64,000 nucleotides of DNA, from positions 27,534,401-27,598,400 of the forward strand of contig CM120641.1 in the NCBI GenBank assembly GCA_051362555.1, given 5' to 3'. The translations under genes and the position numbers were made by a program. How positions within the stretch are numbered: the stretch's first letter is position 1; each line of letters starts with the position of its first letter. The stretch comes from Lingula anatina (lineage: Eukaryota > Animalia > Brachiopoda). Below are positions 115 through 60,907 of the stretch, in pieces. The notes beneath the pieces were generated by a model. It was not told where the DNA came from. It saw nothing but the letters and a program-made list of their open reading frames with translations, and searched no databases.

Positions 115-3100
115 TTATTGATCAAAGGCGGGATTGGATGTACCGTTGCCATGGAGAGTTTTTGCCTTAGAATCGGTGTCGTAGATTGTCCCCGCGCGGT
201 CTTCTGCACGTGCAGGTCCCCAGTCAGCTTGCGGTGATCCAGCTCTCTTCAAGGCATAAAAAATCATACGCACACATTATGTAACTATGGCATATTTACA
301 GGTATCCATGGAAATACTATTATCAGTCTGATTCAGTTTGCACATTTGAATATTTGACCTAGTATAAATCAAAACAGCACTTGCAAATGTACTACTTTAC
401 CTAATAATTCTATTGAATAGCAGATGACTGAGATAAAGAAGGACGGTTTGCCAGCCTTACAGTGCCCTTTTTAAAAACCCATTTTATTTTCCTATGCAAT
501 GTTAGGTGTAGAAACTTAGGTGCAAAACAAGGCTATGGTGAAAACTTAAGAAACTTGTTAGATGTAAAAAATGGGGCGATATACAATCTACTTAATGCGA
601 CAACATCGTCTTAATCTAATATATACCAGCGGTTTCACTGGAAATTCAATGCATTTTCACATAAGTGCAAACAAGGAAGTGCTGCTTTAATATTAATCGC
701 TACCAACCTGGAAGCCGCCGTCGTAGCAGTATCTTCCCAGGATCCAGGCAGGGATGAGGGCGACGGGGGTCAACTGAATCATCCACCCCAGGACCTGAGC
801 CCACACAGGGAATGTATAGCCATGATACACGTATGGCTTCAGCTGAATGAATTTGAATACTATGACAGCCTGCAAAATACGTACTTGAAATTATAGGTAA
901 GACAAACTTACTTCACGAAAATAGTGAAATTCAATTTCCGATTTACCGTCTTAGCAATATTCGAAACTTGAATAATATCTTACTATGCATTTACATTTCA
1001 CATTTAACGGTCGAGGTTTATCCTAATGGTCACTTACCAACATAAGAAGCGGAGATAAACAACACCAAGTGATCCGAAAGTAGATACCAGGCTTCTTGCC
1101 AAGCATTATTTTCACGTCCTCAGAAAACCTGGACCATCCTAGAGTGAAAACAAAATAAGACGTGATGAAAAGTGATAACATAATTCAATTTAAAACATTG
1201 CCATGAGCCTACAAATTTGCTTTGTGATTTTAACGCCAATTCTTCCCGATATGTGTCACTAGACGTGTTTCTCCTGTATTAATCAGATAATTTCTGGATT
1301 CCGTAAAACAACACGGGTCATCAAGCTATCGGTGCGACTGACCAAACCCTTCTGACAATATTTTTATTTATTTTTATATCCTATAAAAAAGATGGAGCGC
1401 ATGAAAATATGTGATTCCTATAGTAAGAGATATCGATTACCTTTAACCTTGAAAAACAGCAGATTTTCGAGTAAAGCAAGAACAAATTACCCCTTACTTA
1501 CCATAGACCCACTGTAGAACTATGCATTCAAATAAGCTAACAAACAGCAACGGAAACCCTCCAACACTGTGATCCATTAGGTCTAATAGATAGTGGCCAC
1601 CCTGAAATTTGTGAAATGTGAAAAGATGTCCTTTGGTATTTCTTTAAGTTATGCATTTGGTCGGGTTTTGTGGCAAAAACTTGCCTTCAAATGCATCTTT
1701 AAGAATATTTACATTGGAATGCCAATCATTGTTACCAAACAACGTGTCAATACATATAACAAAAACAGATAAAGATCAGAGATTGTTTTTTTTTCTTAAA
1801 TACGTATATGAACCGAAAGAGATCTTACAAGAAATCTTACCCTTGCACACATCGGCAGGCCAAGCAGAAAACACACTCCACACACGACGCCCCTCATGAT
1901 GGTTTCACTCCATTTACTAACACGTAGAATATGTGGATATTCGTCCATTATACTGCTCAAAACGGTCTCTGCCATGGAAAACTGTGCACTGAATCCTAGT
2001 AACAGCATCATGGAGAAGAACAGAATGGCCCACAGTGTCGGTAACGGCATCTGGGATATGGCCTCTGGGTACACGATGAAAGCAAGACCAGGGCCTGAAA
2101 TAACCAAAGCTCTGTGTTATCTTATGTGTTTACTCGTATGTGAGAATGCCACAAGTCACTGAATGGGAAACTTTTATATTTTTTCTTATCTGAAAAGGGT
2201 ATTTTTACATTACCACCAACGACACGGAAACATTCATCACTATCATTAGTATCTTATTTTATCATTTATGCGCTCGCGCCATATCGTTCATGCATTTTGC
2301 TCTTGTGTCATCGTTTTCAAGTACAGACCATCTTAGTGTTACGAAAACCTCCTGAACTTGATATACAAATACACATACCTTGACTAGCAACATCAGCCAC
2401 ATCTTTTCCAGATATATGCGCCATGTAGCCAAGCACGGAGAAGATGACCAACCCAGCATAAACGCTAGTCCCGCAGTTCATAAGGGAACAAATTAGTGCG
2501 CCCCTAAGAAAAATATAACGTGTTTGTATTGTATTTCGTCGGTTGAACAAGTATAGCATTAGGTTTCACAGACAATCTTGAAATAATACTGTACCAGCTT
2601 GGGACGACAAACGTACACCACCCCGTTTTAAATGTCATGATGTCTATATTTAATGTATACCCAATTTCTCTTTACCTTTGTTTCAAAATAAGCTTTAAAA
2701 CACAAAAACAGACATTTATCAATTGAGAACATATTTTGAAAACAGATGAATACAACAAATGGTATTTATAAAGAATTTAAAAACCCTCAAAGACTGAACA
2801 AGTATTTGGCATTTTTGTGCATAACGCGTGTTATATGACTGTAGGCCAGACACGTGAGCATTCATGTACCAAATTTCGAGCAATTAGGGTTTTTTACTTT
2901 CTTCAGAACACAAATATAATCTAAATTATCCGAACATCTCGTCTCAATGTTTACCAGTATATAATGTTGAAATAGCGCATTAATAAACTGAGATGAAATC
3001 CAACAAAACCATATTAAGCCTATTAGAGCAGAGTATAAATAATCATTCGTAACAGTTTTTGTTTAACAGCCCAGTTTACCTGAAGCAGTTGTTGTGGAAT

Positions 3101-6100
3101 TTGTTGTAGCTTGACATCGCTATCAGGCCCCCAAAAGACACGCTGAGTGAATAAAAATTCTGAACGACTGCGTCACTCCACACCTGATAGATAAAAAACG
3201 GTAAAAACAGTTAACTAAGGTAATCGATTAACCGAATTAATTTTGCAGTATACTTATGTAGTCGGCATTAAGGGGGGGGGGGTTCGATACGTTGTAGAGG
3301 CCCACATTTGGCAAAATATCTTTTATGTCTCCTCCATCTCAGTGTACCACAAACTTTTATAGTCTCATTCATAGCAAGAAAGAAGGCAACAAGGAATATT
3401 GTTTGTTTGTGATTTGGCCAAACCAGGCCGCTTTTATTTTTCTTGTTTCTTTCATGTTAATATAAGTGAAATAAAGATAAAAATATTTAAGTGTAAAAAA
3501 CCTTTTTGTTTTATTCACCAACCAATGTGCATCTGCAAAAACGCGTTAATTGTCAATTTAGTTGCTTTGTCCCTATGTGTGAGATAGTGATCAGATCCCA
3601 GCGAAACTCTATAACTATAAACTAGAAGGATATTATTATAAAATATGCCATATCCTTTACTAAGATATATACAGATTTATATAAAGCAACTTCTGCTTGT
3701 AGTATCACTTTCCGAACTGGTTTGACGGATAAAAGAAGGGAAGCTATACACTGACCTTAGAGTCTAGAAGTCGACTAAAATCAGGTGTCAGATAATACTT
3801 AAGGGGTCTAGGATATTAAAAATACGTCTAAAACTCGATTTTTAGTTTTTTATACGTTAGAAATAATCAATTTTGTATCTAATACTCAATTAAGTTATAT
3901 TTGTGAAACACGGACTAAAAATATACATTTGGACGAGTTTTTCTACCTGTCCTGACTGGTACGGGTGGCAGGCTTTAGGCTCCGCCTCCGTTGTCAAGCA
4001 CCGTTACTATGGGGGGCGGGGCAAGAATGGTTGTCTAACTTCTTAAGCTGTTACGCGTGCCCTGGCAGCTCATAGGTCTTACGTCAGCTAAGCAGAACAC
4101 AGTTATATACAGTCATGGGAAGAAAGAAAGTCGTGAGAAAACGGATGAGCGAGGAAAACAAGAGAATTTTGAAAGAGAGTGTACGATATATTAAATTTTC
4201 TACTATAGAGTCTAAATCACGTCTAGGTAAAGACTCGAGATCACACTTGAACTGCTGAGTATTCGTACAACGTCTGGGGTTGTCAGAAAAAAATCGTTAG
4301 GCAATCATTTTATGCACAATAAAGATTGTAATAGCAAGCAAGTTTTTAAGTAATATTGCCACCCAAAACATTTTCAAATTCGCATATTACGGTCTTGGCA
4401 CTCTGTGGCATCATGGCATATGCGTACCCACATTCGGCCATTTCTCGGAGTAAATCTTGCTTTGCTTTCTCAATTTTCGTGTCTTGGTGTGTAGAGCGGC
4501 GTCCACGCACGACGGGTGGCAAATTTCCTCTGCTGGCACGCCAAGTAATCCTCTTTTTGTTTGTAAGCGCTTCCTTAGACACTTCCTAGACAGTGCACAG
4601 ACTCCTACTGCGTCAGGCACAATTATGATTAATTACGTCAGTGAAACGAGAGAAGGTAGACCTACTCAGCTGTCAATCATTTCTCAGGGAAGAGCGGCTT
4701 TCGTGGTACGAATAAGTTTGCGTACAAAAGTAAGATTTTCTGGCATCTAGATAGAAACAAACAACCCAATTTTAACACGTAATGGTGTATAGACCTTCCC
4801 GATCAACAAGATGATAACAGGTAAGGTGGAGGTGCAATTATTTTGCTTAAATAGCCCAATTACCTGAGCAAAATGGTTTAGGAGCGATTTCTCAGCTTTG
4901 AAGATTGATAACATAGTCTAAACTTCAATACCCATATCTCATTCTGTAACCGTCAGATTGACATGAAATTTGATGTGTCTCTGTTTCAGTATAATATCTA
5001 GTCGACTGAGTCTTGGTTTTTGGATTGACCTTTTATTTTTGAAGTTATTAATACTGAAATTGGAAGGTCCATATATATTTCGTAAAATTCACGTTTTATC
5101 AAAATAAAATCAAAAGCAAAAATAAAAAGAGAAAATCCTGACAGAGATCACTGGAGTTTGTGCTAACTTTTAGATAGCTATTTCAATCGTATTAATAGGG
5201 CTTTTTGTTTAAGAGAAATTCTTGATTAAAAAAAAGACAATTTTAGCCTCAAAACGCTGATATTACGTCACTCGTGTTACACTGTGACTACAAACTTTGA
5301 AAAATTGTTTGGCTTGCTAGACATTATCTTTAAGTTAATAGGAAATTTCATTAGCTGCATTAGTTTTGGAGTTTTTCGTTAATATCCAAGATCCCTTAAT
5401 GCCTTCTGCGGATCCTTCCAGTAAAACACCACGTACAAGGAGAATGGCCAAGATGACATGAGGGAAAATGGCAGTAAAATAAACAGCCTGTAAAGTATAA
5501 ATATATTAAGTGTATCTTTGTTTTTGGTAACTTAAAAAATGTGAACGGTCTGACTTTAACATGTACTGTACCTACTGTGCGTTCATTTGTCTTGAAGGAC
5601 ACTTAACTACACTAAAATACTTTAATTAGCCCCAACTGCAGGGTAGGCACATACCAATTAAGTTTGGACTAATCTAATAGAAAATGGGTATATATAATAA
5701 ACAAAAGAAAATGACAAAATATGATCTCAAAAATGGAAGTATTTTAAAACCAAGATTAAGTAGAAATGCCTGGAAAAAGAGGAGGTACATGATGTATACA
5801 TGTACAACTTGTTTCTATTATGTTTTACTAATAAGTGCTTGGTCACAAAAAAAAATTTGGAACCGCTTCTGCACCACGTGACACAAACTAAAAAAATAGA
5901 TCGACAGAAAGTTGGAAGGACATGCGTTTATTTGCTGCCATTTTGCTCACCTTCCCCAGGGACTTTATTCCCTTAATCAAGACCAGGAACACGATCAACC
6001 AGGCCAGCAGAAGGCACAGGGAAAGGTCCCATTTGAGACCCCCTGAATTGTCTATCCCATCAGTCATCTCCAGGACTTTACGGCTATACAAATAAAAATG

Positions 6101-6617: not shown

Positions 6618-6649
<32 letters not shown>

Positions 6650-20027: not shown

Positions 20028-20096
20028 CTCAGGATGAATAAGGAAAGCTTTATTTTCTCTCATCACACCAGACTGGTGACCAGAAAAGTGCAGGAA

Positions 20097-22715: not shown

Positions 22716-22754
<39 letters not shown>

Positions 22755-23670: not shown

Positions 23671-23712
<42 letters not shown>

Positions 23713-26700
23713 GATTTAAAAAATGAAGACAATATTTTTGCTTCCATTAAAAAGAACATCAGAGTTAGCACTTTTTCACTTTATAATGAGTCCCACTGTT
23801 TCAGTTTTAAAATGATTTCTATTTCAGTTAATTAAAAAGAGCAGTATAAATGCACATTTGTTTATTATTTGTTTCAAAGTTGGCGAAGGTACTAGTAGGC
23901 TAACAAACACCACCAACCTTACCAGTAGAACAACGGTTCTGAATAAAACCGAGGTCATCTCCGCTTCACCAAGCGAGGAGTATTTCTAGTAAGATAATTA
24001 AACCATGAAGATTGATGAGTGCTTTTCAAAACTCTGCCTCTTGCTGGTTCTGGCACAAGAGAAGTTTTTCAACTAAAACATTCATTCACATATTGCGAAA
24101 CACAGTCAACTTGAAAATTAGTTTATTAATGTTATTAAGTTATTAATTAACTGCAGATCGTTTGACTGCATAAATCGACGCTATCGTCTACGCGTTATTA
24201 CCTCCGACAAATGAGGAGGTAATGTTTTTGTAACCGTTTGTTTGCAACTTCAAAATCTTTCAATTTCGAAGTATGTTGGTCAGTGGGTTAAATTAGTTTT
24301 TAATTTTTTATAAATTATTTAATTATGTACAGATTCTAAGTGCTTTACTGGTTTTATATTTGTAGCCGTAAAGTCCTGGAGATGACTGATGGGATAGAGA
24401 ATTCAGGGGGTCTTAAATGGGACCTTTCCCTGTGTCTTCTGCTGGCCTGGTTGATTGTGTTCCTGGTCTTGATTAAGGGAATTAAGTCCTTGGGGAAGGT
24501 GAGCAAAATGACCTCGTGCACATTAGCTAATATTATGTAGTAGACATGTGATAACCTTGGGTATTTGTACTACGGTAGTAACCAACAGCTGTGCATTTTA
24601 AAAAGTGCATGTATACAACATTGGTCAAACAGGTTGTACATGTCTCATCTCCAATTCCATGTGCTTATATTTACATAGTAGCAAACATAAGCTACGCAGT
24701 AGATACACACGCTATTAGACGCGTGACCTTTTGCGAACACACCCTAATTTTGCTGATTGTTTGTAAATTTGGTGACATTGCATGGCAGTCGTTTAATAAT
24801 CATTCCTTTACCTATGAAGAAAGCACAGTGTAACATCAGATTTGCAGGGGTACATGTTATTTTGAATAAATGGTATAATTTATGGATATCTTCATCGTTA
24901 TGTTGTACATTCTGCACCACTAACGATGTTAGATATGGTATCTGGAATAAAAAGTACTGTTTATAACAAATGACACCCGTGAGATAATGATTTGTAAATA
25001 AAAGCACATGGAATTGGAGGTGGGGCAACCTTTTTGACCAATCTTATTTACATGTATTTATCCCTCCTAAGTTTGGTCAGGTTAAGGTAACTCTATCTTT
25101 TATCCGTATCAGCTGGACTCTATTTCTGTCTCACATAAATCTCTCACATACTCATTTTGTGCAAAAAAAAATACGATTCAGATATCTATTCTGACTAATA
25201 ATAATAATTATTATTATGTAATGGGTGTTTAATCTTGAAAGTAATTATATTTTCTTTATGGTTGAAAGTTTTTTTTTATTTAATGCTTCATTATAATCAC
25301 ATTTTAAAGTTTAATAGTAAATTTTCTACCTGTCTCAGTTTGGTTCCCGTGGTGCAGCAGCGGGTCCTAGAATTTATTTTTCACATATCGTATTGTACAT
25401 AAATAATTCACATGGGGTGTTTTTATTTTTGTCAGTGTATTTTCAGTATTATTCTTCCAAGACAGATTAAAATGCGTTTAAGTGAGATGGCTTCACGTTT
25501 TTTAAGTTACCGAAACAAAAATACACTTAATATATTTTTGTGTTATTCCTTCAAAACAAATGAACGCAGGTACATTTTAAAGTCAGACCGTTCCCGTTTT
25601 TTAAGTTACCAAAAACAAAGATACACTTAATATATTTATATTTTACAGGCTGTTTATTTTACTGCCCTTTTCCCTCATGTCATCTTGGCCATTCTCCTTG
25701 TACGTGGTGTCTTACTGGAAGGATCTGCTGAAGGCATTAAATATTATCTGACGCCTGATTTTAATCGACTTCTAGACTCTGAGGTAATTCTGTGTTCACA
25801 TCTTTTATTATTAAAAAAATTTGGAAAGTCAAACTTAAATATGTATGTACATGTCTTGGTTAAGAATATTACTTAATATTGCGAGAATTTTAATACTACA
25901 CAATCTGGTTGAAAAATTATTGTATTTAATTTTATAATTTAAAACATCTGAAGAATCCTCTACACAATTTCAAGAATGATTCATCACGGGCCGGATGTAA
26001 AGCTTTGGTAGCTTTAATGACTTTTCTGCAATTCGATTAAATGATTGCCTTAGTTTCTACCGTTTTCAAATGTCAGGTGTGGAGTGACGCAGTCGTTCAG
26101 AATTTTTATTCGCTCAGCGTATCTTTGGGAGGCCTGATAGCGATGTCAAGCTACAACAAATTCCACAACAACTGCTTCAGGTAAACTGAGCTGTTTTACT
26201 GAACTCCATTTACTTGTGGGTGTTTTTTTAACATATGTTTTATGAAGACATAGGGGCGAAAGTTAGTTTAGTTTAGAATAATTATACTGTATGTTTGTGT
26301 TATGAAAAAGGTAAATGATCCACATTTAACTTGGACAAGTTACGTTTTGCTTAATCACAAATTTGTTAAGACAGCATTTTGTTAGTAATGAAGCAATAAC
26401 TGTTCATGAAGTGGTAGACGTATCGCAAGCGCAAAAGCAGTATATATATTGGGTTCTTTAACTTTATCTGTAAGATCTAGCAATGATTAAAACAATACAA
26501 ATACATGCCATAATTATTCCTAGGGACGCGCTAATTTGTTCCCTTATGAACTTCGGGACTAGCGTTTATGCTGGATTGGTCATCTTCTCTGTACTTGGCT
26601 ACATGGCGCATATATCTGGGAAAGATGTGGCTGATGTTGCTAGTCAAGGTAAATATATGCCATGTTCCGGTTTTCATTTCAGCAGGTTGCATAGTTTTTA

Positions 26701-29326: not shown

Positions 29327-30016
29327 ATGTAAAGAAAAACTGGAATGAACATACACTGTATTCTTCACTGTAGATGTGAACATGAAGAAGTGTTTATTAT
29401 TATTATTATTATTATTAAACAGTGAACATACTCATTTACAAGCGGGAACTCGCAACAGAATTTACTTGTATGACAATTCTGTGAGCATAGCACAGCGACG
29501 CTCACGACCGTTTCCTTTGCTCTGTTGAGTAAACACAGAGTTGAAACCAGGCGTTATTCCGATACACCACTGAAGGAGCGTATATGCACATATTGTGTCT
29601 TGAATTAAGTTTAAAACGAGAAACATTTTTTTACTTATTATTAACTTGATTTATACATAAGAGAAGATATTTTGAACTCTGCTGTGGTTTTAAAATATTT
29701 TAACACATTAAATGGCGCAGAAATGTTCACTTTTCTCATATAAAACAAGTACACTTTATTATGTGAAGAAGTATCTACAAAATAGAGCAGAGAAATTAAA
29801 AATGTTTTAGATTAAATCTTTATGCTTTTATCCGGTTCATTTACACATTGACGTATTAAAAAACTTTAATGTATTTTAACTCTCTATATTCAGGTTTTAG
29901 TCCCTCAAGAGTCATACAATGTAATTCTTTAAGAGACTAAAACCTGAACAGGGAAGGGTGGTTTTTGTATATGAAACGTGAGACGTTAATAAATCATCAT
30001 CATCATTATTATTATA

Positions 30017-37191: not shown

Positions 37192-37199
37192 TATAAATA
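37192..37199 (+). promoter_or_regulatory. TATA box of copy 3
   Basis: TATAAATA 60 nt upstream of the ATG at 37260. Confidence 0.7.
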
Positions 37200-37259
37200 C
37201 CTAGGATAGCCGTACTTTCTCTCATCACACGAAAACGGACACCAGATAAAGTGAAGAAA

Positions 37260-40200: not shown

Positions 40201-43200
40201 TCGTTTAAGATAATAATAATAATAATAGATAAAAATAGCGAAGACAATATTTTGACCATTTTTGCATCCATTAAACAGAACATCATGGTTGAAACTTTTT
40301 CACTTCATAATGAATCTCACTGTTTTAGTTCTAACGTGATCGAATATATTTGTATAATCCTTTCAGTTTAAAACACATTCGTTTTGTTTTCAGTTAATTT
40401 ATAAGAACGGTATAAATGCACATTTGTTTACTATTTGCTTCAAAGCTGGTGAAGGCACAAGTACACGGACAAACAACACCAACTTAATGAATAGAAAAAC
40501 CCTTCTGAATACTACCGATACTACCGAGGTCATGGCCACTTCACCAAGCGAGGAGTATTTCTAGTAAGATAATCATTCCATGAAGATTGATGAGTGCCTT
40601 TCGGAAAGTCTGCCTCTTGCTGCATTTGGCGCAAGAAAAGTTTTAAATGCAAGACATTGTATATATGCACGAAACAAAGTCAACTTAAAATTAAGATTGT
40701 TTTAACAGTATATGAATAGTTATTAATTTTAAAATATGAATAGTTATTAATTAACTGTAGATTGTTTGACTGCTTTAATCGACGCTATGGTGTACATGTA
40801 GTTTAACAATTGTAGCCGTAAAGTCCTGGAGATGACTGATGGGATAGAGAATTCAGGGGGTCTCAAATGGGACCTTTCCCTGTGTCTTCTGCTGGCCTGG
40901 TTGATTGTGTTCTTGGTCTTGATTAAGGGTATAAAGTCCCTGGGGAAGGTGAGCAACATGGCAGCAAATTAACGCATGTCCTTCCAACTTTCTGTCGATC
41001 CATTTAGTTTGTGTTAAGTGGTGCAGAAGCGGGTTCTAAATGTATTTGTTACCAAGCACTTATAAGTAAAACAATACAAAAACAAGCTGTACATGTACAC
41101 CATGTACCTCGTCTGTTTCCAGGCATCCAACTTATTACTGCTTTTGATGTTAATGTCAGATGTCAGATCGTTCACGTTTTTTAAGTAACCAAAAACAAAG
41201 ATACACTTAATATATTTATCCTTTACAGGCTGTTTATTTTACTGCCCTTTTCCCTCATGTCATCTTGGCCATTCTCCTTGTACGTGGTGTTTTACTGGAA
41301 GGATCCGCAGAAGGCATTAAGTATTATCTGACGCCTGATTTTACTCGACTTCTAGACTCTGAGGTAATCATGTTTTCATTTCTTTTATTCTTAGAATTCT
41401 ATTCAATGGTGATGTTATCCTTGGTCGCTTTAATGACCTTTGTGTGAAGGTTATGATTGCTTTAGTTTCTACTGTTTTTAATCGTCAGGTTTGGAGTGAC
41501 GCAGTCGTTCAGAATTTCTATTCGCTCAGCGTATCTTTGGGAGGCCTGATAGCGATGTCAAGCTACAACAAGTTCCACAACAACTGCTTCAGGTAAACTG
41601 AGCTGTTAAACAAATTCTTACTATTCAATATCTGTTTACAATTGAATTATGCCTGTTTTTTGGTTTTAAACTTCTTTTAAAGCTTAAATAAGGAAAAATT
41701 GAATGAGCATATCGATAAACATCAAACTTAGACATAGTAAGTTTAATATGCATTTTTGTTAAGACAATAATTTGTTAGTAATAAAGCACGAACTCAACGG
41801 GCGCGGAGTGGAAGACGTACGGCAAGCACTAAAGCTCTAAAAGTTTGATGAAGTGAATAAATGTTGGCTTACTTTAAATTTATCTGTAAGATCTAACAAT
41901 GTATAATATAATACAAACACATGGCACGATTATTCCTAGGGACGCACTAATTTGTTCCCTTATGAACTGCGGGACTAGCGTTTATGCTGGATTTGTTATC
42001 TTCTCCGTGCTTGGCTACATGGCGCATATATCTGGAAAAGATGTGGCTGATGTTGCTAGTCAGGGTACGTGTGTTTGTATGTCAAGTTCAGGTTTTCATA
42101 ACATCAAGATGGTCTGTACTTGAAACAAGAGTAAAATGCAGGCACGAGATGACGCACGCGCGCATAAATGATACAATAAAATACACATAATGATGAATGT
42201 TACCATGTCGTTGGCGTTGGTCAAAGTACCCTTTTCAGAAAAGAAAAAAATGTAAATTTTCCCATTCAGTGACTTGTGGCATTCTCACTTGGAGTAAACG
42301 TAAGATAACACAGTGTTTTGTTTCAGGCCCTGGTCTTGCCTTCATCGTGTATCCAGAGGCCATATCCCAGATGCCGTTACCGACACTGTGGGCCATTCTG
42401 TTCTTCTCCATGATGCTGTTACTGGGATTCAGCGCACAGTTTTCCATGGCAGAGACCGTTTTGAGCAGTATAATGGACGAATATCCACATATTCTACGTG
42501 TTAGTAAATGGAGGGAAACCATCATGCGGGGCGTCGTGTGCGGAGTGTGTTTTCTGCTCGGCCTGCCGATGTGTACAAGGGTTAGTTTTTTTTTTTTTGT
42601 AGGATCTTTTCAGGTCGTATAGGTATTTGAAATATCAAAACGATTATATTGATCTGTTTACGTTATTTGTTATAGAAAGAAATCATATGTCACTTCTCGC
42701 CACAAAAATCCCAGATGTGCTATCCCCGGCCGTGTATTAAGTGACAGTTATGCCACCCCCGGCCGTGTATTAAATGACAGTTACATGTATGCCACTAACA
42801 TATTAAATCCTAAACAAATTTTATTGAAATCATATATAGTTTAAAAATATTTCGAAACTAACAAGGAAAGTGTAGCACATATTGCCTTTACTTTTCGTAT
42901 GGTTTCAGGGTGGCCACTATCTATTAGATCTAATGGATCACAGTGTTGGAGGTTTCCCGTTGCTGTTTGTTAGTTTATTTGAATGCGTAGTTCTACAATG
43001 GGTCTATGGTAAGTAAGGGGTATTTTTTTCTTGTTTCTCGGTAACCTGCTGTTTGATAGTGTTCAAGGTTAAAGGTATTCAATATCTTTTACTATATGAG
43101 TATTTTATTTCATCTTGTATAAAGCACCTAAATACAGAAAAATTAATGGCAGAAGTGTTTGGTCAGTTGCACCAATATAGCTTGATTTCCCGGGCTGTCT

Positions 43201-48310: not shown

Positions 48311-49845
48311 AGCTCGCACTACGGTGAGCAGCTTATTGTTATGCAAATTACGACAGGTATGGCTCATTTATTGTGAGAGGTCATTACTGAAACCCTCGGC
48401 CCCGTAACTCGAAAGCATCGCGTTTTGCGAATAGCGATATCACATAGAGGCTACAGTGTAGTATATGGGGCGAGTATGGGCGAGTTATGGAATCGAGACG
48501 CTTATTTATAAGACAAAATTGTTTTTATTTGCTACATATAGTAAATATTCAGATATTTTTGTTTCAGAGTTTTTCATTTTGTCGAATTTTTTCAAAGTCA
48601 GTTTGGGAAAAATAACTGAAGATAACAATCCGGAATCATGTACACATAAAAGAAACAAACGACTATGTCTAAGTCACCTATGGTATCTTTTGCGTGGTTT
48701 TCGGTGTGCCTCCGTGTCACTGTCATGCTCATTACCAAACTTTCATAGCTTCTTGTTGTACACGTAGGTCTCCTTTACCCAGTGTTTTTTAAAACACACT
48801 TTCATTAGGATTATCCTATCCCAAGAATGATATTTTTTTCTAACAAAATATCTAGACAATAAAATACATATTGTTACTCGCCAAATTTACTTCTAACTTC
48901 ATGTTTTACATGTTCGAACATAAAGTCGGCATTGACTGAAAAGAAGACATTTGAATGTATATTAAAATATACGACCTTTGGTGGCATTTTAAGGACATGT
49001 CTGGTCGACAGGTAAAATTGCTAAACGCTGAAATTATAAGACAGTGCAAGGCACTCGTGTTATATATCCGTATGGAACACTGCTCATCACGTTTCAAACG
49101 GCAGGTTTCCATTAGGTAGGGTAGAAACCTCAATATATCTACCTCGTTTGAACTACTAATTCATCAAATACTCTAAAAATCAGTTTAATGAAATACAAAT
49201 GTGTACATATACATTTCAGGGCATTTACATGGAATACTAGCTGTACAGTGTGCCAACTTGTCCCGACCCTGGGGCCCCCTTGACGTCAGGTATGGTTTTT
49301 GTCAAATTATGGGCCATCTGGCATTATACTTCAATTTATATTTCTTTTGCAAAAAAAAAAAGTAAATATTTGATAAAGCTTTCTGTGATTCAGTATGGTT
49401 TACTAAACCACACAGACATATAAATTGATATTACATTAAATAGTTTTAATCTTAAAGGACAACACATTAGAATCAAAGGGGACGTTTCTTTAATTTTCTC
49501 ACAATAGTCGTTATTGAATGTATAGAATGGAGTATGCTGAATAATAATTACAAACGGCTTTGGTTTTTTTGTACATTTATAAAGAATACAGGTATATGTG
49601 TCCACTTTTAGAACATACAAGTCGCCGTGTAGAATAGTTTGTAGAATATCTTGATCTCTAGTGGCATAAAATAAACCCACACTATTCACTCTTTAAATGC
49701 ACGCTTTTTCAAGAGCAAGTAAAGCTCCTCATCAAAGCCACATGGGTGTTATATTTCCATGCTAACAAGAAAACGGTGAGTTTGTCCAAGAGTTCTCGAA
49801 TCTTCAAAGTATCTTTTACTCATACAAAAGTTCTGTGGTTGAGAG

Positions 49846-51615
49846 TTATTCGTAGGAATATTGATCAAATGCAGGGTTGGATGAACCATTGCCATAGAGC
49901 GCTTTTGCCTTGGATTTTGTGTCGTACTTTGACCCTTCGCGGTCTTCCGCATTTGCAGGTCCCCAGTCAGCTTGCGGTGATGCAGAGCTCTTCAAGGCCT
50001 AGAAACGAAACATACACATAATATTAAAAAACTAAACTATTAAATCTTAAAAATTAGGATAAGTTTTATTTGTTTGTGTTAAAATATCGTCGTTCAATAT
50101 CAATCGCCACCAACCTGGAAGCCGCCGTCGTAGCAGAATCTGCCAAGGAACCAGCCGGGGATGAGGGCGATAGGAGTAAATGCAATCATCCATCCCATGG
50201 CCTGGGCCCATACAGGGTAAATGTAGCCCTGGTACACGTGTGGTTTCAACAGAACGAACTTGAATGCTATGACAGCCTGCAAAGAAAACATGAGAAGGAT
50301 ACAGGACATCAAGAGGAGGGACAATCCCCAGGGAACCGTTTACGTATTGTGTATTATATAAATTTGCGGCAAAACAATGCCAAATTTGAAGAAAAGTTCA
50401 GATTTTAATCAGTTTTCTACATTTTTATCCTGCGTTCTTCACTTTCGAGTTACAAATGACTAAACTACTGTAATGCTATTTTTGCAACATGGGCAGCTGT
50501 CTTAAAACTGACTGACAATTCAGTAGCAGCTTGCTACACGTAGTAAGACATTTAAACTGACATGGTAACTGTATTTCCACCAGTAAAGTTCTCAGAGTCA
50601 CTTACAAACATGAGAAATGGTGAAACGTAAACCCACATAATCCGGAAATATATGTTAGGTTTCTTGCCAAGCATCATTTTGACGTCCTCAGAAAACCTGT
50701 CCCATCCTAGAAGAAAGAATTTTTTTAAAAAAAATCTGATTAACTTATTCGATAAATGAAACTGGAAGCCCAAGTCACTAGAGAGCAAATAATAGTAACA
50801 GTCATAATGACCATAATAGAAAAAATACAAATCTGGTGAAATCCTACATGTTAAAGGGCGGTTGATCGAAAATGGCACGTCAATGAGGAAACGACACATA
50901 CCATAGACCCACTGCAGCACTATGCATTCAAATAAGCCAACAAACAGTAGCGGGAAGCCGCCAATATACGTGTCCACTAAGTCAAATAGAAAATGACCAC
51001 TCTGGAAATCGAAAAAAAATACATATAAAGAGCATAATAAGCGGACACCAGTAGCATTTACAAAGAAAGGTTTCCCCATGTCCAATTTACGTGTTAAAAT
51101 TTCATTAAATAACAACAATATTCAAAGACAACATTATATAGTTATATTAATTTTTTTCTATTCCATTCGTACCCTGTGAATTAAAGATGCCTGTAATCTG
51201 TATAAATAATGGAATTAAAGAGAAACAATATGAAGTGCATAGACTTACCTTTGTACACATGGGCAAACCGAGCAAGAAAAACAATCCACACGCGACACCC
51301 CGCATAAGGATTTCCCTCTTTTTATTAACGCGTAGAATATGTGCGTAATCATCCATTATGCTGCTCAATACGCATTCCACTATGGAGAATTGGGAGCTGA
51401 AACCTAGCAGCATCATCATGAAAAAGAACAGAATGGCCCACAGTGTCGGTAACGGCATCGTGGATATGGCCTCTGGATAAACGATGAAGGCAAGACCAGG
51501 ACCTGAAATATGGCAATCACAAATCTTTGCAAAAATTCTAAAACAAAATATCACTTGCAATTCCACAACCATTTTCTCTTAAATTATGTCCTTCAAGTAA
51601 TGACGAAACTCCCGT

Positions 51616-51666
<51 letters not shown>

Positions 51667-54600
51667 TTTGCAGCGGGATGAATTCTGATCCCTTCAGTTA
51701 AACGGCATACTATTTTTTTTACTTCTGTTGCACAACTATTTTACATGTACCACTTACCCAACGTCTCGGGTGGCTTTCTTTTACAGGCACACGTTAAATC
51801 GAATAAATGAATCACTCAGCATCTTTACTGTTTGTGGTCTTAATTTTTTTCTATATCCAAAAAATCATAAGAATTTCATATTGGCAAACAGGACTCAACG
51901 TACCTTGACTAGCAACATCAGCCACCTCTTTACCAGATATATGCGCCATGTAGCCAAGCACGGAGAAGATAACAAATCCAGCATATATACTTGTGCCACA
52001 GTTAATAAGAGGCACAATCAGAGCGTCCCTAAGAATATACAGTCAATTATAAATATGCAATTCGTCAATGCATCATTGATTTGCGTAAAGGCTTGGAGCA
52101 ATACAAAGTCAAATAACACAGCAAATGACCACTGCATTCAACAGAAAAACAACTATGTTAGCCACTCAAAAGGTGTTTTTTAAAAATACATTTAAAAAAA
52201 TGTTAAGCAAATAAACATGTTAAGATTTAGTAAATGGTTAGATTAAATATGGTCAGATAAATACTGTAAGTAGTTCTATTAAAGCCTCAGCGATAGGACA
52301 AATAATATGCAGGTATTAAAAAAGAACAGAAAAAAAGCAGTCAACGGCAATGGTGAAGTACCCGATGAAGATATATATAATAATTACAGAACTTGATTAC
52401 TATACAACGTTTACAGTGCATGACATTTAAAGCAAAGTGCAAAACAAAACATGCAAACTCATGCAAATTATATAAAGGATATGTACGTCAAATCAGATTG
52501 ACTAAAGAGGAGGGAGATTAAGAGGGACAGGCAAGCCCAAGCCATCGATTTCATATCCACACGAAGTGTGGTAAAATATCCATACACAAGTACCCAGGTA
52601 TCCATTCACATAATATTCAAAGAGAATTAATCCCCTATGCATGCATGATTATAGGTATAAAAATCAAACCAAACCATGCTAAGTCTATCAAAAAAAAGGG
52701 TAAATTCCACCTAAATAAGGTACATCCCAATAGTCTGACATGGGACAAACGTTGTACTGTATTTCACAGTCCAGTCTACCTGAAGCAGTTGTTGTTGAAT
52801 TTGTTGTAGCTTGCCATCACTACCAGCCCTCCTGAGCATGCGCTGAGAGAATAAAAAATCTGAACGACTGCGTCACTCCATACCTGGCAGGTATAAATGA
52901 TAAGAACCAAGTCAACCAGGTCTACTCTAACATAAACTTATTGAAGATAAAAAAATATAAAGAACCATTTTATCATAATTTGTGCTTGCTGGATCTTATT
53001 TGGTATAATTTTCATCATGGCTAATTTTGTCTTTACGGGTCTCTTAGTATAACTTCAATCTATTGGTTGCCGTGATCTTAATCAAAATATTATTTAGATG
53101 TAACAGATCTGCATCAAGATGCACGTACACATAGCATTCCCTTGAACACATCACTGTTTGATAAAGGAGGTATTGGATTATGCCGCTGAAAACTTCCCTT
53201 GAAAGATTTAAAGACATCACAAAGAAGTGTCTTTTCTGTTTTTTTTTTTTCTATTTAAAACTTTTTTCATAAAAATAAATATATGAGGACTAAGAGAATT
53301 TGAACGATACATGTACATTACTTTATACGGACTTTGACAACACTTTTTAAGTCAACTTCTTTTGCTATTTTGTTTTTCAAATGATTCATAGATTTTAAAC
53401 AATCATTTCTTAACGCTGTATTGGCATCTCAGTGCTTTTTGTACACCATATAAACATGTGAAAAATATGAGGATGTGAAACAACGATAAAGAGGCAGGTG
53501 ATAGTGACCAAATGTATAGGTGATGTTGCAACTGTGCTGATGACAAAACAAACACTCGATCACGTACGGTGACAAAAATGATATGTCGTGAAGCAAACAA
53601 AAAGAACACTACGTTTTGCTGAGTCATGCCGGATGTGTTTTATATTACAAATTGATTGTGCTCAAACAGGGAGATGGGAGGAAGTGACATGCTGCGCGGC
53701 AAGTAGTCAAAATACGGTAAAACAAGAGCATTTTCAACAACGCGTCAAGCAGGCCAATACCTGAATGCGTTCGTACGAAATTTGTTAAAGCTAGCCATGG
53801 TTATCAGTCCACCAGAGGAGACACTTAGTGAATAGAATATTTGAACCACTGCGTCGCTCCAGACCTGTTAAAACCAACATGTTAGTATCTTTACGTGTCT
53901 GATATACACTAATTAAAAACTGTCATTCGTTTCGCTTTTTTCGTCTTTTTCTTTCTTCCGTTTCATATTCCCTATCAGTGTCGTCGATGGTGAAATTGCC
54001 TTTGTAAACAGAAAAAATGCTTTTGTTTGATCACATTTTTATGTCACACTATCTATACCCAAGTTTACTAGGAAATAATTTTGCGTACTTCACGGAAATA
54101 TCACTTTTTTATTTGCGTTTGAATGGAATGGGCTAGAAAGTAGTCTGGTGTGTAAAGGGGATTGCACCTGAAACGTAATAAAATAGCAACTTCTTGCCAA
54201 CTTCTCCATTGCCGTTTTCTCGCCATACCGTTTGTGTGTAGGCCAGTCAAAGAAACATGGCTGCCCGCTTTCTGCCGCAACTTGAATCATTTACCTGTAG
54301 CAGTTATTATGGAATTTCCCAAAACTAGCCATTACGATCAAACTTCCTGCACACACACCCAAAGAGTAGAATACTTGAACACATGCGTCGCTCCATACCT
54401 ATTGTAAAGTCCAAATCTTCAAGTATTGAGGAAGATTAACCTTGACATGCCATCCTCGGGAGGAAAACCATGTGCAAGGTGCAGGAAAGCCAAGACGGCT
54501 TCATCAGCGACACGATACAGTTAAGTCAAAGTTTGTTCAAGCATAAACCAAGCATATATGTATCTTTTTGCTGGGTTACTTTTGGGAGACGCCTCTACAC

Positions 54601-57600
54601 ACATAATTTAGAACAAACCCATGCCATTTACTTTTTAGTATATACATATATAGACGGTTGAATATGGGACTAGGCATACAGGCAAAACGTACATTGCTCA
54701 AGACATTTTGCTTATCGATTGTTTTTTACTTTTAAATACTTTAAAGTATACATTTGAAAGATAACCATCATACAATGTTTGGAACAGTAAACATAAATAC
54801 AAGTTTTAAGAACTTTATCTTATCCATATTAGCTGATACACAAACGAAAGCATTACCTCAATGTCTGCAAGACGTGTAATATTAGGCGACATGTAATATC
54901 GAATGCCTTCAGCAGATCCCGGCAGCAAAGCGCCGTTTACAAGGAGAATGGTAAGGATGATGTAGGGAAAAATGGCGGTGAAATAGACAACCTAAAAACC
55001 AAATAAAGTTATCTGTTTGACCGAAAACGAAAAAGTTTGAAAGAAGTAAGTTTTCTTAAACATCCGTTAATCTTGGTACGCAACTTTTTGTGTTAATAAT
55101 GAAAAGAAGGTTATTTAATGAATATATATTACAAAAACATTCTATCACTATGCTATTAATCTAGAACGACACAGTGAGAAGATGTCAGGAAAATTCTGAG
55201 GGGGAAGTGGATGAGAGAGATTATTTTGTGAATGTTTTTTAGTACATCCCAGTACGTGAAATGACTCACTTTCCCTAGGGACTGGATTCCCTTGATCAGG
55301 ACCAGGAACACAATCAACCAGGCCAGCAGAAGACACAGGGAAAGGTCCCATTTGAGACCCCCTGAATTGTCTATCCCATCAGTCATCTCCAGGACTTTAC
55401 GGCTATAAGTAAACAACCATGTGCAAAGTATAGGGTATATGTGTAACAATCCAGTAGTGATTTTATATCTTTTTTGACCAGACTCTCAATTATAGAATTT
55501 TTATTTTGAGTAGATACTAAATGGTAAAAGATGAGATGCATCTTTTTTGGAAGACATAACAATAAAATGTTATCTTACTAGAAGTATTCCTCGCTGGGCG
55601 ATATACGGGAACTGGTATTGGTAGCGTTCATAAGCATTGTAGTCATTGAAGAACTAGCAGTGGTGGTCACTGCAGAACTGACAGTTGTGGTCATATTGGT
55701 CGTGTTCGTCGAAACGCCTTGGCCAACTTAAAATTGGTTGAAATTTTTTCAAGATTTAAAAATAAAGATTAAGATAAGTACGAATATATTATCAAAGCAA
55801 TGTATTACACCCTCGCAAACTTAATGAATGGGAACTTGAAAAACCCAATGTAACCATAATGCACATAATTTTAATTAAAAGGCCTGACATCATTTCATGG
55901 CTTTAAAATGTTTACTCTGACTCCCCCTTTTTTAATTTGTGTTCCAAAAAATCCATTGGCATGAGCTACAGAGCGGATCTCTTCCATGTCATTACCTTCT
56001 AAGCAATCTTTAGTGTTCCAAGGATTCCCACAAGAAGACCACGGCAAATTGGCCGTCATGGAGGCGAAGAAGTAGTAAATACAGTAGGCAATGATAACGT
56101 TGTAGTATAGACCCATGATTAGAGACACCATCACCATGGCATAGCCGAGACCTGAAGAAACGCAATGTGGGGTTTTAAAATCATTTTTTAAAATAAAAAT
56201 GACTAAAAGTGTACTACTTTTTTTTTCACGAATGTACAGTACTCATCTTGCCAATACCCGTTCGCTTATTAACTCCTGTCTTTGTGATGTTGAGCAAAAC
56301 AGAAATTGGTGAGAAAAAGCGGCATGAACATGAACATGAACATTTATTATCTTTATATTATTGATTATTAAATAATTACAATACACAACGTGTGTGCGGG
56401 GGGGGGGGGGCAATTCATACTTAGGCAAATAAACGAGATACTCCGCAGCTGAATATAGCTTAATAAAGATAACCTACCTTTAAACAGTGGACTAATTTTC
56501 CAAATAGTGATAGGCCCAAGACTGGCAAACTGGCCAAAACAAAGTTCCATGAAGAATAAGGGTAGACCCACAAATGCCAAGCTGATGCAGTATGGGAGAA
56601 TAAAGGCTCCTGGAAATAGAAGGATACTGAGCAACAATATGTCACACGGCTGTCATTAATTCAATTCAGAGAGGTGTTTCTTCTTAACATCTACTCACAA
56701 TACTTAATCACTGAATGTTAGAGATAGTTACAAAATTTCAACAGAGTAACGACAGCCCTTAAAGCATTTCAAGCTTAATTATCAAATAAGTTTGTTACCC
56801 GTATTGCGGTAGTTGAGATTCGAGTCCCAAATTGGCTTACCTCCACCGTTCCTGTAACATAGGTATGGAAAGCGCCATACATTTCCCAGACCTACGGCAT
56901 AGCCGACACAGGTTAAAATAAACTCTATCTGGCCCCCCCAGTTACCGCGCTCATTCAATTCACTCGCCATAAGATCAGCTTGAGAGTCTAAGCGACCCAT
57001 GTCGGCGTCAGCCGCGGCTTCCAATTCTTTGGAGACCGAGTTCACCGTGGTGGGTTTTCCCTGGAAAGAAATTTTGTTTTTACAACTATATTACAACTAG
57101 AAAAGTTGTCATAAGTGGCCCAAACTCGCTTTGTTTCGATATATAGATATATCGTTCATCTTTAATATAAACACTTTTGAAGTGGTATTACATGTATCGT
57201 TGGTTTCATCGTTTCTTAGATGAAGATATAAAAAAATCTCATGGTTTCATCATACTACTCATATTGATCCGCTCCCTATCTGTCACAGTTTAGATCAATG
57301 AATTTGAGAACCATCACTGCCTCCACATGCCCTTTCAATACCGTTATCTTTATTCATGTAAGACATGATTTGAAGTGCACCGCAAACATGTGACGTTATA
57401 TAGCCAAAGTACCATTTGAATCTGTCGACATTCTGAAGAGATGCATTTTGCATACAATACGCTGCTCGTCCCGTTCCAAACCGCAGCCGTGAGACCGAAT
57501 TTATCAACACAGATACTACACAGTTGTCCGTCTGTCAGCACTTGTTGACTAGGGTGATAAGAACGCTCAAATTGCACGCAATAAAGTTGTCAGTTTATGG

Positions 57601-60600
57601 AGACTATTCACGGGACAATAGCATAAAAACTACTTTTTAAATCTATATGATTTTTTATCGACCGTTGACATTCAAAAATTAAGAGATGAAATGTCATGAA
57701 ATACTACTTATGAAGGTTATATTCTCAATTACGCCAGTTAAAGACTTACTCATAAAAAAGTAATGGAAAAAGAAAGAAAAAGGAAAGCCAAAGTTTTTTT
57801 CATTCGTGTGAGTGAACATATTGCTACTGAACTTCTGTTTTTCGTTTCAACTGCTTTTTCTTGGGGGGGGGGGGGGGAGGATTCCGGATAAAGGGTTGGA
57901 AAACGTGGGAAAGATAAAAATAAAATAAATTAAATATATATGCTTGAAAGTTAAAATAAAAAATATATATCAAGCACTTTTTAATTGTTATTTATAAGTG
58001 TGCCATGTCGTTTTCGTTTAATACGCAATCTATTTTACTGAATAAATGACAGCAACACGCTTTCTTCATTTTCTCTTCTATTTTCATTACTGTGAAACAC
58101 AGGTCACGGTGCTTGGATTTCTTCGAGTGTCCTTTCAATAAGCCATAAGTAGCCTCAATAAATAACTTCCTTGGGCCAAGCTAATTCTAGCATGTAATAA
58201 ATAGATAAGACGTTAGGACTTGTGTAAGAACGTGTGCAAAAGCAGAGATGATAAGCTTAATCCTGACTATTTAAATCAGTGTTTGAAAAGGTGGAAAAAC
58301 TGACCATGCTATATTGACAAATTGACACGATGACAAACAGTGTGTTCCATACTTTTGAGCTTAAGAGAGGGTTTGTGGAGTTTCTACTGCCGCCAGTTAC
58401 ACCTAATTCCAGATATGCCTCTACACTTCACTGTACATGCCCCATTCTTGTAGCGATGCTTACTCAGAGTATTTACAATTTATACTTTTTGCAAAAAACA
58501 TAGAAAGTGTACTGAAGGACACTTGGCGTTACTAAGCGTGTTTCCTTTGCCTTCTACCCCAGTACGTGCAGCTACATGTACGAAGTCACTTTTCCCATCT
58601 AAATAAAATGACGGCAACTCACCACGCAGATTCTTATGACCTTGTTTACCTCGATTTCCATCACCAAATCAGTTTTCGTACTGTAAGAATCAAATTACGC
58701 AATCACTCGGTGAAAAGTGATAAACTCATTTTCAGCCGAAGAAGCGTCAAAGCGTGCGCCGTGCGATTTGTCACAAATAGAAATTGTGCCATGAACTTCA
58801 GTGATAGGGCCAGGTTGATGGGATTTTATTTTTGCCGTGAGCGAGTAGAATGTGAGAATATTCTCAGCACAAAAAGTTAAATTAAATAAACGATTAATTT
58901 AGCGAACGCATCCATAAGACAAAACATGATGAATCTAACTTCACCTGGTTCGTCGGAGGGTTTTATTAGTGCTAGAAAATATTACGCAATCACTCTGAAA
59001 GTAGTGATGAACTCAATCCCAACCAAAGAAGCGTCAATGGGTGCTTCATGTAAATTGTTCACCAAAAACAAATGCAAGGTTTAATTTCATTATGGGGTCT
59101 ACAAGGGGAATCCCAAGCGGAAAGTATCTTGAGTAGTTACGTGAGTCCTGACAATTTTGCCTTTCTTACACACAATATACTCATTTGATATCACCTTGAT
59201 TTTCGTCGTCATACATGTAAAATGTAGTATAAGCTACTGAATGCCCCGATGTTAGTGTGCATTTAGTGAGCCTTCCGTTGCATCTATACGGTATATAAAT
59301 TGAATGGTATATAAATTCCAAAATGAAATGTTTAAAGTGTATATACATATTAATACTGTTCTTAGTGACTCCTTTACACCTCTTTCTCGAGTCACCTATG
59401 CCAAAACTTCTAGAGCCACACCCCTTTTGTTGAATAGAACCCATCACCAATGGTAAAGAACAATGTGTCATTATTATTATAATGATAAGATAAGACTGGG
59501 TTCCCATTAACCTAGCGTACCAGCAGGATCGACATAACTCCGAGGGGGATTCTTGCATTCAGTTTAAGCGGTTTAAATGTCTGTCACGCCCATTGAAGCT
59601 GCTAAGAGGGTAATTACCTTTCGCGCATGCTTAAGCTGAATTCAATTTAGTGAAATCCCCTCGATCCTGTTAATACGATAGAGTTATGGGAATGATCCCT
59701 AAGTTACAGAGAGAAACTTTATCAACCAAGGATCCGTTTGTAAGCACCCCATCAACATATGTCAAACCCCCTGTCAGGGGAAAAAGGAAAAGACAATAGG
59801 AAGAAAGTTCCGACAAAAAGGTCTCATCATGACCTTCATTTAGCATAATAACCTGATATAAAATCATCCGTAACCATTCAAAGTGCGTAGTGAAAACAAT
59901 GACAATATGTCCGTTGTCTTTGGATTCTGTTGACAGCTTTATGTAAAAACATCTTTGGAAATTGATATACTCGACTTGCACACGGAAAAAATAATTCTGA
60001 TAAGACTTTTTAATTCTGCTTTATGTGGCATCACTAATATCAAAGGTTAAAGTAGAAAAGATTGAGAAAAAAGTCGAAAAAATGAAAAAGAACATAAAAA
60101 TTGCAATTCAACAACAATTTCACATTTAAGAGACGGATATAAAAAGGGTTAAACAAAAAAAAAAGGGAATGAAAAAGTCCAAATTCGAATGTGCAGTCAA
60201 ATATTTAATGTTACTATTCTCAAGAAAATGTACAGGTTGAGTTTAGATACCAAGTCCCTAACTATTAATTTTATTCAGTAGATAATATCTAAATTTAAGC
60301 CAAACATATGCTACAATCTTTTGCAGTAACACAACTCACGCCTATGAACCTTTTTTTACCAATTCAGTTGTGACAAGATTTAGATTTATAATCGCTTGTG
60401 AAAAACGGCACTTACACAGCTCAATTTTCATGTGGCATCACAGATATCAAAGGTAAAGTTAAAGTAAGAAAAGTGACTAGACAACATAAAACAATGTAAT
60501 TCAAAATCTATTTCACGTTGAAGAGAGGGTTGAACCTAGGGTTGAACAAAAAATTGCTTAATCTTGTCGCGCAAAGGAATGAAAAAATCCTCAAATTGTT

Positions 60601-60907
60601 CAGCAGAAAAAATCAAAATTTTACACAATACTTTTGTGCTTTTCTTTAAAGTTGGAATCTCAATTGCTTTAACATTGCGTTGATACCTTTAAAAGTTTGG
60701 GAAACCTAACCTCAGTGTCAGCCAAGTCACCGACCCCGTATAAATGCCACGATAAAGAACTCATTAAAAAGCAGCCGCAAACAAAAACGTGGCGTAAAAA
60801 ATGAAAAGACAAACCTTCTTATCATTATTTCAAGAACACATATACCCTAATTTTGAAATAAGAAAAGGAGAAAAGAAGATACCAGTACTCACGTTTTCTG
60901 CCTCCAT
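49846..60907 (-). CDS. SLC6 Na+/Cl- dependent amino-acid-transporter-like protein, copy 4 (645 aa; three alternative TM6 exons)
   Basis: Exons 60893-60907 (MEAEN), 56841-57060, 56478-56609, 55996-56151, 55579-55726, 55270-55402, 54857-54991, one of [54295-54398 / 53761-53864 / 52780-52883], 51904-52028, 51249-51502, 50902-51001, 50606-50706, 50115-50276, 49846-49998; total 1938 nt. Canonical [24 protein letters not shown] and [10 protein letters not shown] motifs. Confidence 0.93.
51615..51669. repeat. (TTTA)n microsatellite
   Basis: ~13 tetranucleotide units. Confidence 0.9.
52780..52883 (-). CDS. Alternative TM6 exon 8c of copy 4
   Basis: cag|[34 protein letters not shown](R)|gtagac; 104 nt, no stops. 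Confidence 0.9.
53761..53864 (-). CDS. Alternative TM6 exon 8b of copy 4
   Basis: cag|[34 protein letters not shown](R)|gtattg; 104 nt, no stops. Confidence 0.85.
54295..54398 (-). CDS. Alternative TM6 exon 8a of copy 4
   Basis: tag|[34 protein letters not shown](R)|gtaaat; 104 nt, no stops. Confidence 0.85.
59495..59670. mobile_element. Degenerate MITE family A copy in intron 1 of copy 4
   Basis: Starts GACTGGGTTCCC like 43214; core TTAAATGTCTGTCACGCC is the revcomp of the 43302-43320 core. Confidence 0.6.

Follow-up and report, generated by a model that had tools for sequence, protein, structure and literature searches.

Three tandem TM6 exons in an SLC6 transporter gene of Lingula anatina, a predicted mutually exclusive cassette at the substrate site

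The window analysed here, a stretch of 64,000 nucleotides (nt) from the brachiopod Lingula anatina (NCBI GenBank assembly GCA_051362555.1, contig CM120641.1, positions 27,534,401 to 27,598,400 of the forward strand), contains a cluster of four similar genes encoding transporters of the SLC6 family. Copies 1–3 each have one exon for transmembrane helix 6 (TM6), and the fourth (copy 4) has three in succession, designated 8a, 8b and 8c (Table 1). This raises the question of whether a single gene gives rise to several transporters with different substrate pockets. We consider it likely that these are three old tandem TM6 exons, spliced mutually exclusively to give three transporters that differ in substrate range or affinity, 8a versus 8b and 8c above all. 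That more than one of the exons is still used is very probable, and that the isoforms differ in substrate range or affinity is, taken separately, probable.

The three exons are real, and 8a and 8b are unannotated in Lingula anatina. Each is 104 nt long, is preceded by AG and followed by GT, is entered in phase 0 and left in phase 2, and is free of stop codons, just as a preliminary description of this DNA had stated. That description also held that inclusion of none, two or three of the exons shifts the frame so that only single inclusion gives protein, and a model of all eight inclusion patterns agrees. Only the three single inclusions are open, with 640 amino acids (aa) counted from exon 2, or 645 aa once the five-codon first exon (60907–60893) is added. 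The other five patterns are all broken, with a stop at 316 aa when all three exons are skipped, at 355–363 aa in the three double inclusions, and at 355 aa in the triple inclusion. The locus thus shows what is expected of a cassette, namely homologous exons side by side that agree in length and phase and have intact splice sites, and the exon anatomy together with the frame rule supports the mutually exclusive architecture that had been proposed. All four donors are ordinary GT sites without a U12-type look (judged by eye), a consensus-like branch point motif lies about 21 nt upstream of 8b, and the polypyrimidine tract of 8a is the weakest of the three (45% pyrimidines). A permissive search with the 13 exons of copy 4 over 49601–61000 found no duplication of any other exon, and an nhmmer profile built from the six TM6 exons of the window recovered those six, as it must by construction, and no seventh, the next match having an E value of 2.1.

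The age of the exons and the selection acting on them can be read from their divergence. In pairwise comparisons they are 66–70% identical in DNA sequence and share 22–26 of 34 residues, and the flanking introns are unalike, with no alignment past the splice sites. Synonymous sites are saturated, with pairwise proportions of synonymous differences (pS) of 0.74–0.86 against 0.15–0.23 for nonsynonymous differences (pN; Fisher p 1e-5 to 3e-9), and more than one codon is used at 12 of the 19 residues that are invariant across the three exons. When neutral decay was simulated to at least 0.5 substitutions per site, 0/5000 copies retained both splice dinucleotides (AG and GT) together with an open frame and 22 of the 34 residues. 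Because pS greatly exceeds pN and no neutral copy survived, 8a, 8b and 8c must all have been selected as coding sequence for most of their history, and the rate comparison upholds the earlier suggestion that the silent differences reflect purifying selection. This holds for the long term only, since 2293 of 5000 copies stayed intact at 0.1 substitutions per site and a recent loss of function would still be invisible.

The TM6 exons of copies 1–3 are 85–87% identical to 8c and 63–73% identical to 8a and 8b, and at third codon positions the copy 3 exon has an identity of 0.79 to 8c and 0.38 to both 8a and 8b. On account of these identities the cassette is older than the gene duplications, and copies 1–3 kept an 8c-derived exon only and then altered its pocket residues (Leu or Phe at position 259, LeuT numbering). 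No decayed remains of 8a or 8b were found in the paralogue introns. That the window holds four similar genes, and that the cassette is read from one assembly, could also suggest that the array is an assembly artefact made of collapsed alleles or paralogue pieces; exons that are only 66–70% identical, that lie between unrelated introns, and of which 8a and 8b match no paralogue exon are unlike either, and we regard such an artefact as extremely improbable.

The protein that carries the cassette corresponds to RefSeq entry XP_013390656.1, which is 645 aa long, uses 8c, and is the sole member of its own protein cluster. Exon 7 is identical to it at 45/45 residues. Two N-terminal residues of the window protein differ from it, so that the window probably represents another allele or assembly. 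The Pfam SNF domain (PF00209) is recognized over residues 43–589 with 682 bits, and an AlphaFold model of the 8c isoform only (predicted local distance difference test score, pLDDT, 87) has helix breaks at residues 61–62 in TM1 and 327–331 in TM6, the latter separating a TM6a helix (312–326) from TM6b (332–338). The top Foldseek matches of this model are GlyT2, GlyT1 and PROT, with TM-scores of about 0.8. With an SNF domain and, in the model, a LeuT fold in which TM1 and TM6 are unwound, the host protein is classed as a member of the SLC6/neurotransmitter:sodium symporter (NSS) family. The position of LeuT G24 in TM1 is G62 (equivalence by way of the GlyT alignment and a published table), and it is Gly, not Asp, in 86/86 aligned proteins, which by sequence fits the SLC6 transporters of amino acids, with their carboxylate group. 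The chloride and Na1 sites are represented by Q321, S325, N357 and S361, which we take to be LeuT Q250, T254, N286 and E290 (as Ser), and the Gln and first Ser are supplied by all three exons.

What would differ between the isoforms is the lining of the substrate site, S1. Because the model breaks at residues 327–331, exon positions 14–18 make up the unwound TM6 segment, and in the alignment to GlyT2 exon position 14 is S479 and position 17 is W482; model and alignment together confirm the placement of the variable residues in that segment. The motifs at LeuT 256–261 were also read correctly, as GVCAGS in 8a, SVSSGG in 8b and SACSGG in 8c, and the residues matching LeuT Q250 and S254 are retained in each. 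Exon 8a therefore has Gly256, Ala259 and Ser261, and both 8b and 8c have Ser256, Ser259 and Gly261 and differ from each other at 257–258 and in the loop, with four of their eight differences near the end that forms the loop (exon positions 26–33). A table in PMC12655857 equates GlyT2 S479/W482 with LeuT S256/F259, PROT G300/F303, ATB0,+ S324/W327 and GlyT1 G373/W376, and according to the consulted parts of PMC8602798 the GlyT2 mutant S479G gains sarcosine transport, W482F admits alanine and leucine and has a wider range, and S479 also touches ions. In MhsT, as described in the excerpt of bioRxiv 10.1101/2020.04.03.022970, the size of the pocket is set by the unwound TM6 loop, and that source and the accessible text of PMC9599917 describe the residue at the LeuT 259 position as a volumetric sensor.

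By analogy with these transporters, the best-supported difference between the isoforms is predicted to be Gly256 in 8a versus Ser256 in 8b and 8c, the sarcosine switch of GlyT1 and GlyT2. The prediction with the firmest basis concerns 8a, which should accept N-methylated or imino substrates (sarcosine and proline), as Gly allows in GlyT1 and PROT; for 8b and 8c the expected substrates are primary amino acids, handled with different affinity or kinetics. The preliminary description had all three isoforms differing in selectivity, which is overstated: 8b and 8c both have Ser at 256 and at 259, so that the clear predicted switch lies between 8a and the other two. The same description deduced an enlarged pocket from the small residue at 259. 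The residue is indeed small in all three (Ala, Ser and Ser), but among 124 homologues with a TM6 match the position is Ser, Thr or Gln in 99 and Phe or Trp in 10, so that a small residue is a trait of the whole lophotrochozoan clade. SACSGG, the motif of 8c, is the commonest of the clade (48/124), and Ala at 259 occurs in none of the 124 distinct TM6 segments. This gene alone (1/86 aligned) has Met at the LeuT V104 position (protein residue 135; exon 55996–56151), and because this Met may refill pocket space, the enlargement is uncertain. The Trp at 259 that restricts GlyT1 and GlyT2 to glycine is absent from 8a, 8b and 8c; for this reason the protein is not a glycine-restricted GlyT, the RefSeq name is a similarity label, and a broader amino-acid or osmolyte carrier is likely.

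The residues that set 8a apart bear directly on another explanation, that the cassette is spliced exclusively and yet yields transporters for the same substrates, with differences in ion affinity, turnover, leak or trafficking. This would parallel SLC12A1 (NKCC2), in which, according to the part of PMC7818487 consulted, ion affinity and trafficking depend on which exon is swapped in. The shared Ser256 and Ser259 of 8b and 8c, the concentration of half of their differences at the loop end, and the ion contacts of GlyT2 S479 would all be accommodated by this explanation. It accounts less well for the clustering of the variable columns in the unwound segment and for Gly256 of 8a, which is a substitution whose effect on substrates has been measured in GlyT2 (PMC8602798, as excerpted) and is accompanied by changes at 259 and 261, and we consider it unlikely. 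A difference in substrate range or affinity remains the preferred reading.

Expression was addressed with 4 of the 9 RNA runs listed under the species label, using 6–26% of the reads of each. Sixteen reads fall on the window (14 from run X12, 2 from X18, none from X15 or X19), with no depth on 8a or 8b and 0.32 in the bin over 8c. These reads derive mostly from paralogues: 10 of the 12 listed differences from the window are alleles of copies 1–3 and the remaining 2 match neither, and a loose end in the reads occurs in copies 1–3 and not in copy 4. Copy 4 itself is not seen expressed among them, and for this reason the reads are no test of cassette splicing. RefSeq has one isoform of this gene, with 8c, and a protein search with exon 7 returned no transcript-derived Lingula isoform (7 matches among 73 candidates).

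Relatives of the gene were surveyed as proteins, with 25 protein clusters looked up, and one cluster contains a pair of TM6 isoforms from the same gene. These are XP_064646770.1 (X1) and XP_064646771.1 (X2) of the nemertean Lineus longissimus, both 630 aa, whose 12 differences all fall within the 35 exon positions (0/595 elsewhere); both are database protein models. RefSeq isoforms usually rest on RNA alignments. Isoform X1 is nearer to 8c (28/34 residues, against 24 for X2), and X2 is nearer to 8b (27/34, against 23 for X1). Five residues shared by 8b and X2 (V15, S16, I21, T22 and F26) occur as a set in one of the 124 distinct TM6 segments of the proteins retrieved, that of X2, and a four-residue 8c set occurs in 5/124, 8c and X1 among them, the positions in both sets having been picked after the match was seen. 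Judged from the protein models, a two-way TM6 cassette is thus already annotated in a nemertean relative. Among the best 120 of 1907 matches to the Lineus X2 region there was no additional orthologue from a nemertean or a brachiopod.

Two further cases come from the same survey. In the nemertean Tubulanus polymorphus two near-identical proteins (P0019 and P0135) differ at 13/35 TM6 positions and at 16/422 elsewhere, and the odd TM6 (P0135) is similar to the one in P0030, a paralogue that is less closely related; the pattern points to duplicates of a cassette gene each annotated with, or keeping, a different exon, and gene conversion fits it too. The Owenia fusiformis isoforms CAH1788345.1 and CAH1788344.1 (P0016 and P0130) differ at 11/42 positions in the segment of exon 9 (TM7 to extracellular loop 4, EL4; residues 341–378) and at 0/612 elsewhere, which suggests a separate mutually exclusive exon pair one exon downstream. 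Cassettes of pocket exons thus seem to recur among the SLC6 genes of invertebrates. In trees from which the TM6 segment was removed and fused or fragmentary proteins were left out (124, 39 and 28 rows), the Lingula and nemertean genes lie in one weakly supported lophotrochozoan group (90/77) and not together. Constraining Lingula with the nemertean genes costs 1.7 log-likelihood units (approximately unbiased, AU, test p 0.43), and one old cassette and two independent duplications are both possible for Lingula and Lineus.

The annotated Lineus isoform also bears on whether 8a and 8b could be silent relics of a former cassette, with 8c alone in use. Such a history is compatible with the single RefSeq isoform, with the descent of all three window paralogues from 8c without 8a or 8b, with the weak polypyrimidine tract of 8a, and with the survival of about half of the simulated exons shortly after silencing. 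It would require that both exons went silent recently, after selection up to synonymous saturation, and it has to contend with AG, GT, length and frame kept in both 8a and 8b and with an 8b-like exon in an annotated isoform of Lineus. We judge it distinctly unlikely, and infer that 8a and 8b are spliced in Lingula.

If one exon is spliced in at a time, giving three isoforms from one gene, something must choose among them. Steric exclusion by closeness is unlikely, as the gaps within the cassette are 430 and 877 nt. A G+C-containing inverted repeat joins 54200–54216, after 8a, with 52343–52359, after 8c, at 16 of 17 bases, and at -28 kcal/mol no other duplex between the two introns is better. 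It is matched by 25/100 shuffles under a permissive model, and under a strict model by 3/300 for this pair and 18/300 for all six intron pairs. A second candidate selector (53201–53181) pairs with the same putative docking site, with 4/150 shuffles doing as well given that site; the intron before 8a gives 15/150. In the mechanism that these candidates suggest, 8b and 8c would be looped out when the docking site pairs with the selector after 8a, and 8c alone when it pairs with the selector that follows 8b; without pairing 8c would be the default exon. Nonsense-mediated decay of frame-broken transcripts is an established mechanism, and would here remove wrong exon combinations. Control of the cassette by such pairing is a tentative proposal, and we give it clearly less than an even chance. 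We also note a 16-nt element present at 52503–52518 and 53487–53502, about 260 nt after 8c and 8b respectively, with 13/16 positions identical. The two elements are spaced by 984 nt, compared with 981 for the exons, and are partly complementary to exon 9 at 51917–51932; they may be a duplication remnant, a splicing element, or chance.

Several observations weigh against three functional isoforms. First, no Lingula transcript of 8a or 8b is seen, RefSeq has 8c only, and a recently silenced exon would still look intact, as the simulations indicate. Secondly, the pair in Lineus is the only same-gene TM6 pair in the 25 clusters, there is no TM6 variation in 10 mostly molluscan clusters (one of them represented by 15 of its 53 members), and none of the same-gene isoforms among the proteins of the clusters surveyed showed an 8a-like partner exon. 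In the gene tree Lingula lies apart from the nemertean genes, though a grouping of the two is not rejected. Thirdly, 8b and 8c read identically at 256 and 259, the literature consulted holds no transport data for this clade, and the docking pairing is non-significant under the permissive model and borderline under the strict one.

Transporters often have homologous exons that are used mutually exclusively. The closest precedent is NKCC2, described in the consulted part of PMC8373072 as the one three-way cluster of homologous exons known in the human set. As in Lingula, its exons 4B, 4A and 4F are three tandem homologous exons used one at a time in a transporter of the LeuT fold, and the variants differ in apparent affinity (PMC7818487, in the part consulted). 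Unlike Lingula, NKCC2 swaps TM2 and a loop outside the ion-binding vestibule, by means of frame-keeping exons of the 96-nt type (32 residues), whereas the Lingula cassette encodes TM6 itself, which lines S1, in 104-nt exons whose co-inclusion shifts the frame. The CAT-2A and CAT-2B forms of SLC7A2 differ in affinity. SLC7A2 likewise has a homologous mutually exclusive exon pair in an amino-acid transporter (catalogue supplements of PMC5740500 and PMC8373072), but with two exons, in another family and in another segment of the protein. The Lineus proteins, named 'glycine transporter 1-like', share family, clade and a 35-residue TM6 swap with Lingula, but have two variants and not three. Vertebrate GlyT1 (SLC6A9), GlyT2 (SLC6A5), PROT and ATB0,+ are the best sequence and structure matches (45–47% identity) and show the Gly/Ser split at LeuT 256 seen between 8a and 8b/8c, but between genes and not exons, and with a Trp or Phe at 259 that none of the three exons has. 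The geometry of the candidate docking elements is that of insect 14-3-3 zeta, Mhc and MRP1, where a docking site lies in the intron after the cluster and selectors follow the upstream exons (PMC6071210, as excerpted); unlike those clusters, the Lingula candidates have borderline statistics from one sequence only.

The preliminary description knew of no three-way TM6 cassette in SLC6, and this survives in part. Among the matches listed in the full-text literature there is no SLC6 TM6 exon cassette, with subscription journals mostly outside this scope and absence from print unproven, and 'SLC6A' does not occur in the supplements to the human catalogues PMC5740500 (where the control SLC7A2 is found) and PMC8373072. 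A two-way form, however, stands in RefSeq for Lineus, and NKCC2 is a three-way precedent; what is new here is that a three-way cassette covers the S1 selectivity loop in a member of SLC6. A more ambitious proposal is that a TM6 cassette inherited from a brachiopod–nemertean ancestor switches S1 between an imino/N-methyl mode (Gly256) and a primary-amino-acid mode (Ser256), mirrors within one gene the split of GlyT1/PROT from GlyT2/ATB0,+, is steered by a downstream docking RNA switch outside the arthropods, and has served as a nursery for one-pocket duplicates. In this full form we think it rather improbable.

The neighbouring genes occupy 100–7600 (-), 22750–29330 (+) and 39400–44760 (+). In all three the residue after Q250 is Asn and position 259 is Leu or Phe, the S355 position is Ala and the I359 position Met, and Ser replaces Asn in the TM1 GNVWRF motif; because of these changes their pockets and ion sites have diverged. 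At least one of them is expressed, as judged from the RNA reads, and copy 1 seems to be cut short in its C-terminal tail by a stop near 115. The regions upstream of the head-to-head copies (8200–21200 and 35200–39300) are duplicated and inverted with 70–82% identity, a sign of recent segmental duplication. In copy 4, the exon at 55579–55726 (-) encodes a Thr/Ser/Met-rich extracellular loop 2 with several N-x-T/S sites and low model confidence (residues 185–212), and has no tblastn match in the paralogues.

Table 1. Positions in the window of the TM6 exons, their host gene, the candidate pairing elements and the paralogue exons.
Feature	Coordinates	Strand	Remarks
Host gene (copy 4), whole coding span	49846..60907	(-)	SLC6/SNF transporter, 645 aa, matches XP_013390656.1
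Constitutive exon 7 (TM5 to extracellular loop 3, EL3), upstream of cassette	54857..54991	(-)	135 nt, leaves in phase 0
TM6 exon 8a	54295..54398	(-)	Gly256, Ala259, Ser261 (LeuT numbering); missing from the RefSeq protein
TM6 exon 8b	53761..53864	(-)	Ser256, Val257, Ser258, Ser259; diverges at the end in intracellular loop 3; unannotated; resembles Lineus isoform X2
TM6 exon 8c	52780..52883	(-)	SACSGG; exon of RefSeq XP_013390656.1; resembles Lineus isoform X1; source of the paralogues' single exon
Constitutive exon 9 (TM7-EL4), downstream of cassette	51904..52028	(-)	125 nt
Candidate selector, about 70–95 nt after 8a	54200..54224	(-)	16/17 bases complementary to docking candidate
Weaker candidate selector, between 8b and 8c	53181..53201	(-)	Pairs with the same docking candidate
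Candidate docking site, intron after 8c	52336..52359	(-)	Putative; borderline statistics
Single TM6 exon, copy 1	3082..3183	(-)	Phe at 259; 85% nt identity to 8c
Single TM6 exon, copy 2	26077..26178	(+)	Leu at 259; 87% nt identity to 8c
Single TM6 exon, copy 3	41489..41590	(+)	Leu at 259; 85% nt identity to 8c

For the annotation of Lingula the immediate consequence is that two coding exons, 8a and 8b, are missing from it, and for the family more widely that databases label this clade 'glycine transporter' though the glycine-restricting Trp is absent. The cluster places splice variants and gene duplicates of one pocket side by side. If the exons are spliced as predicted, copy 4 would be a ready-made experiment of nature, in which TM6 is exchanged on a constant SLC6 backbone and at most 12 residues differ around the selectivity loop, and the rules of S1 selectivity would become testable in a large uncharacterised lophotrochozoan clade.

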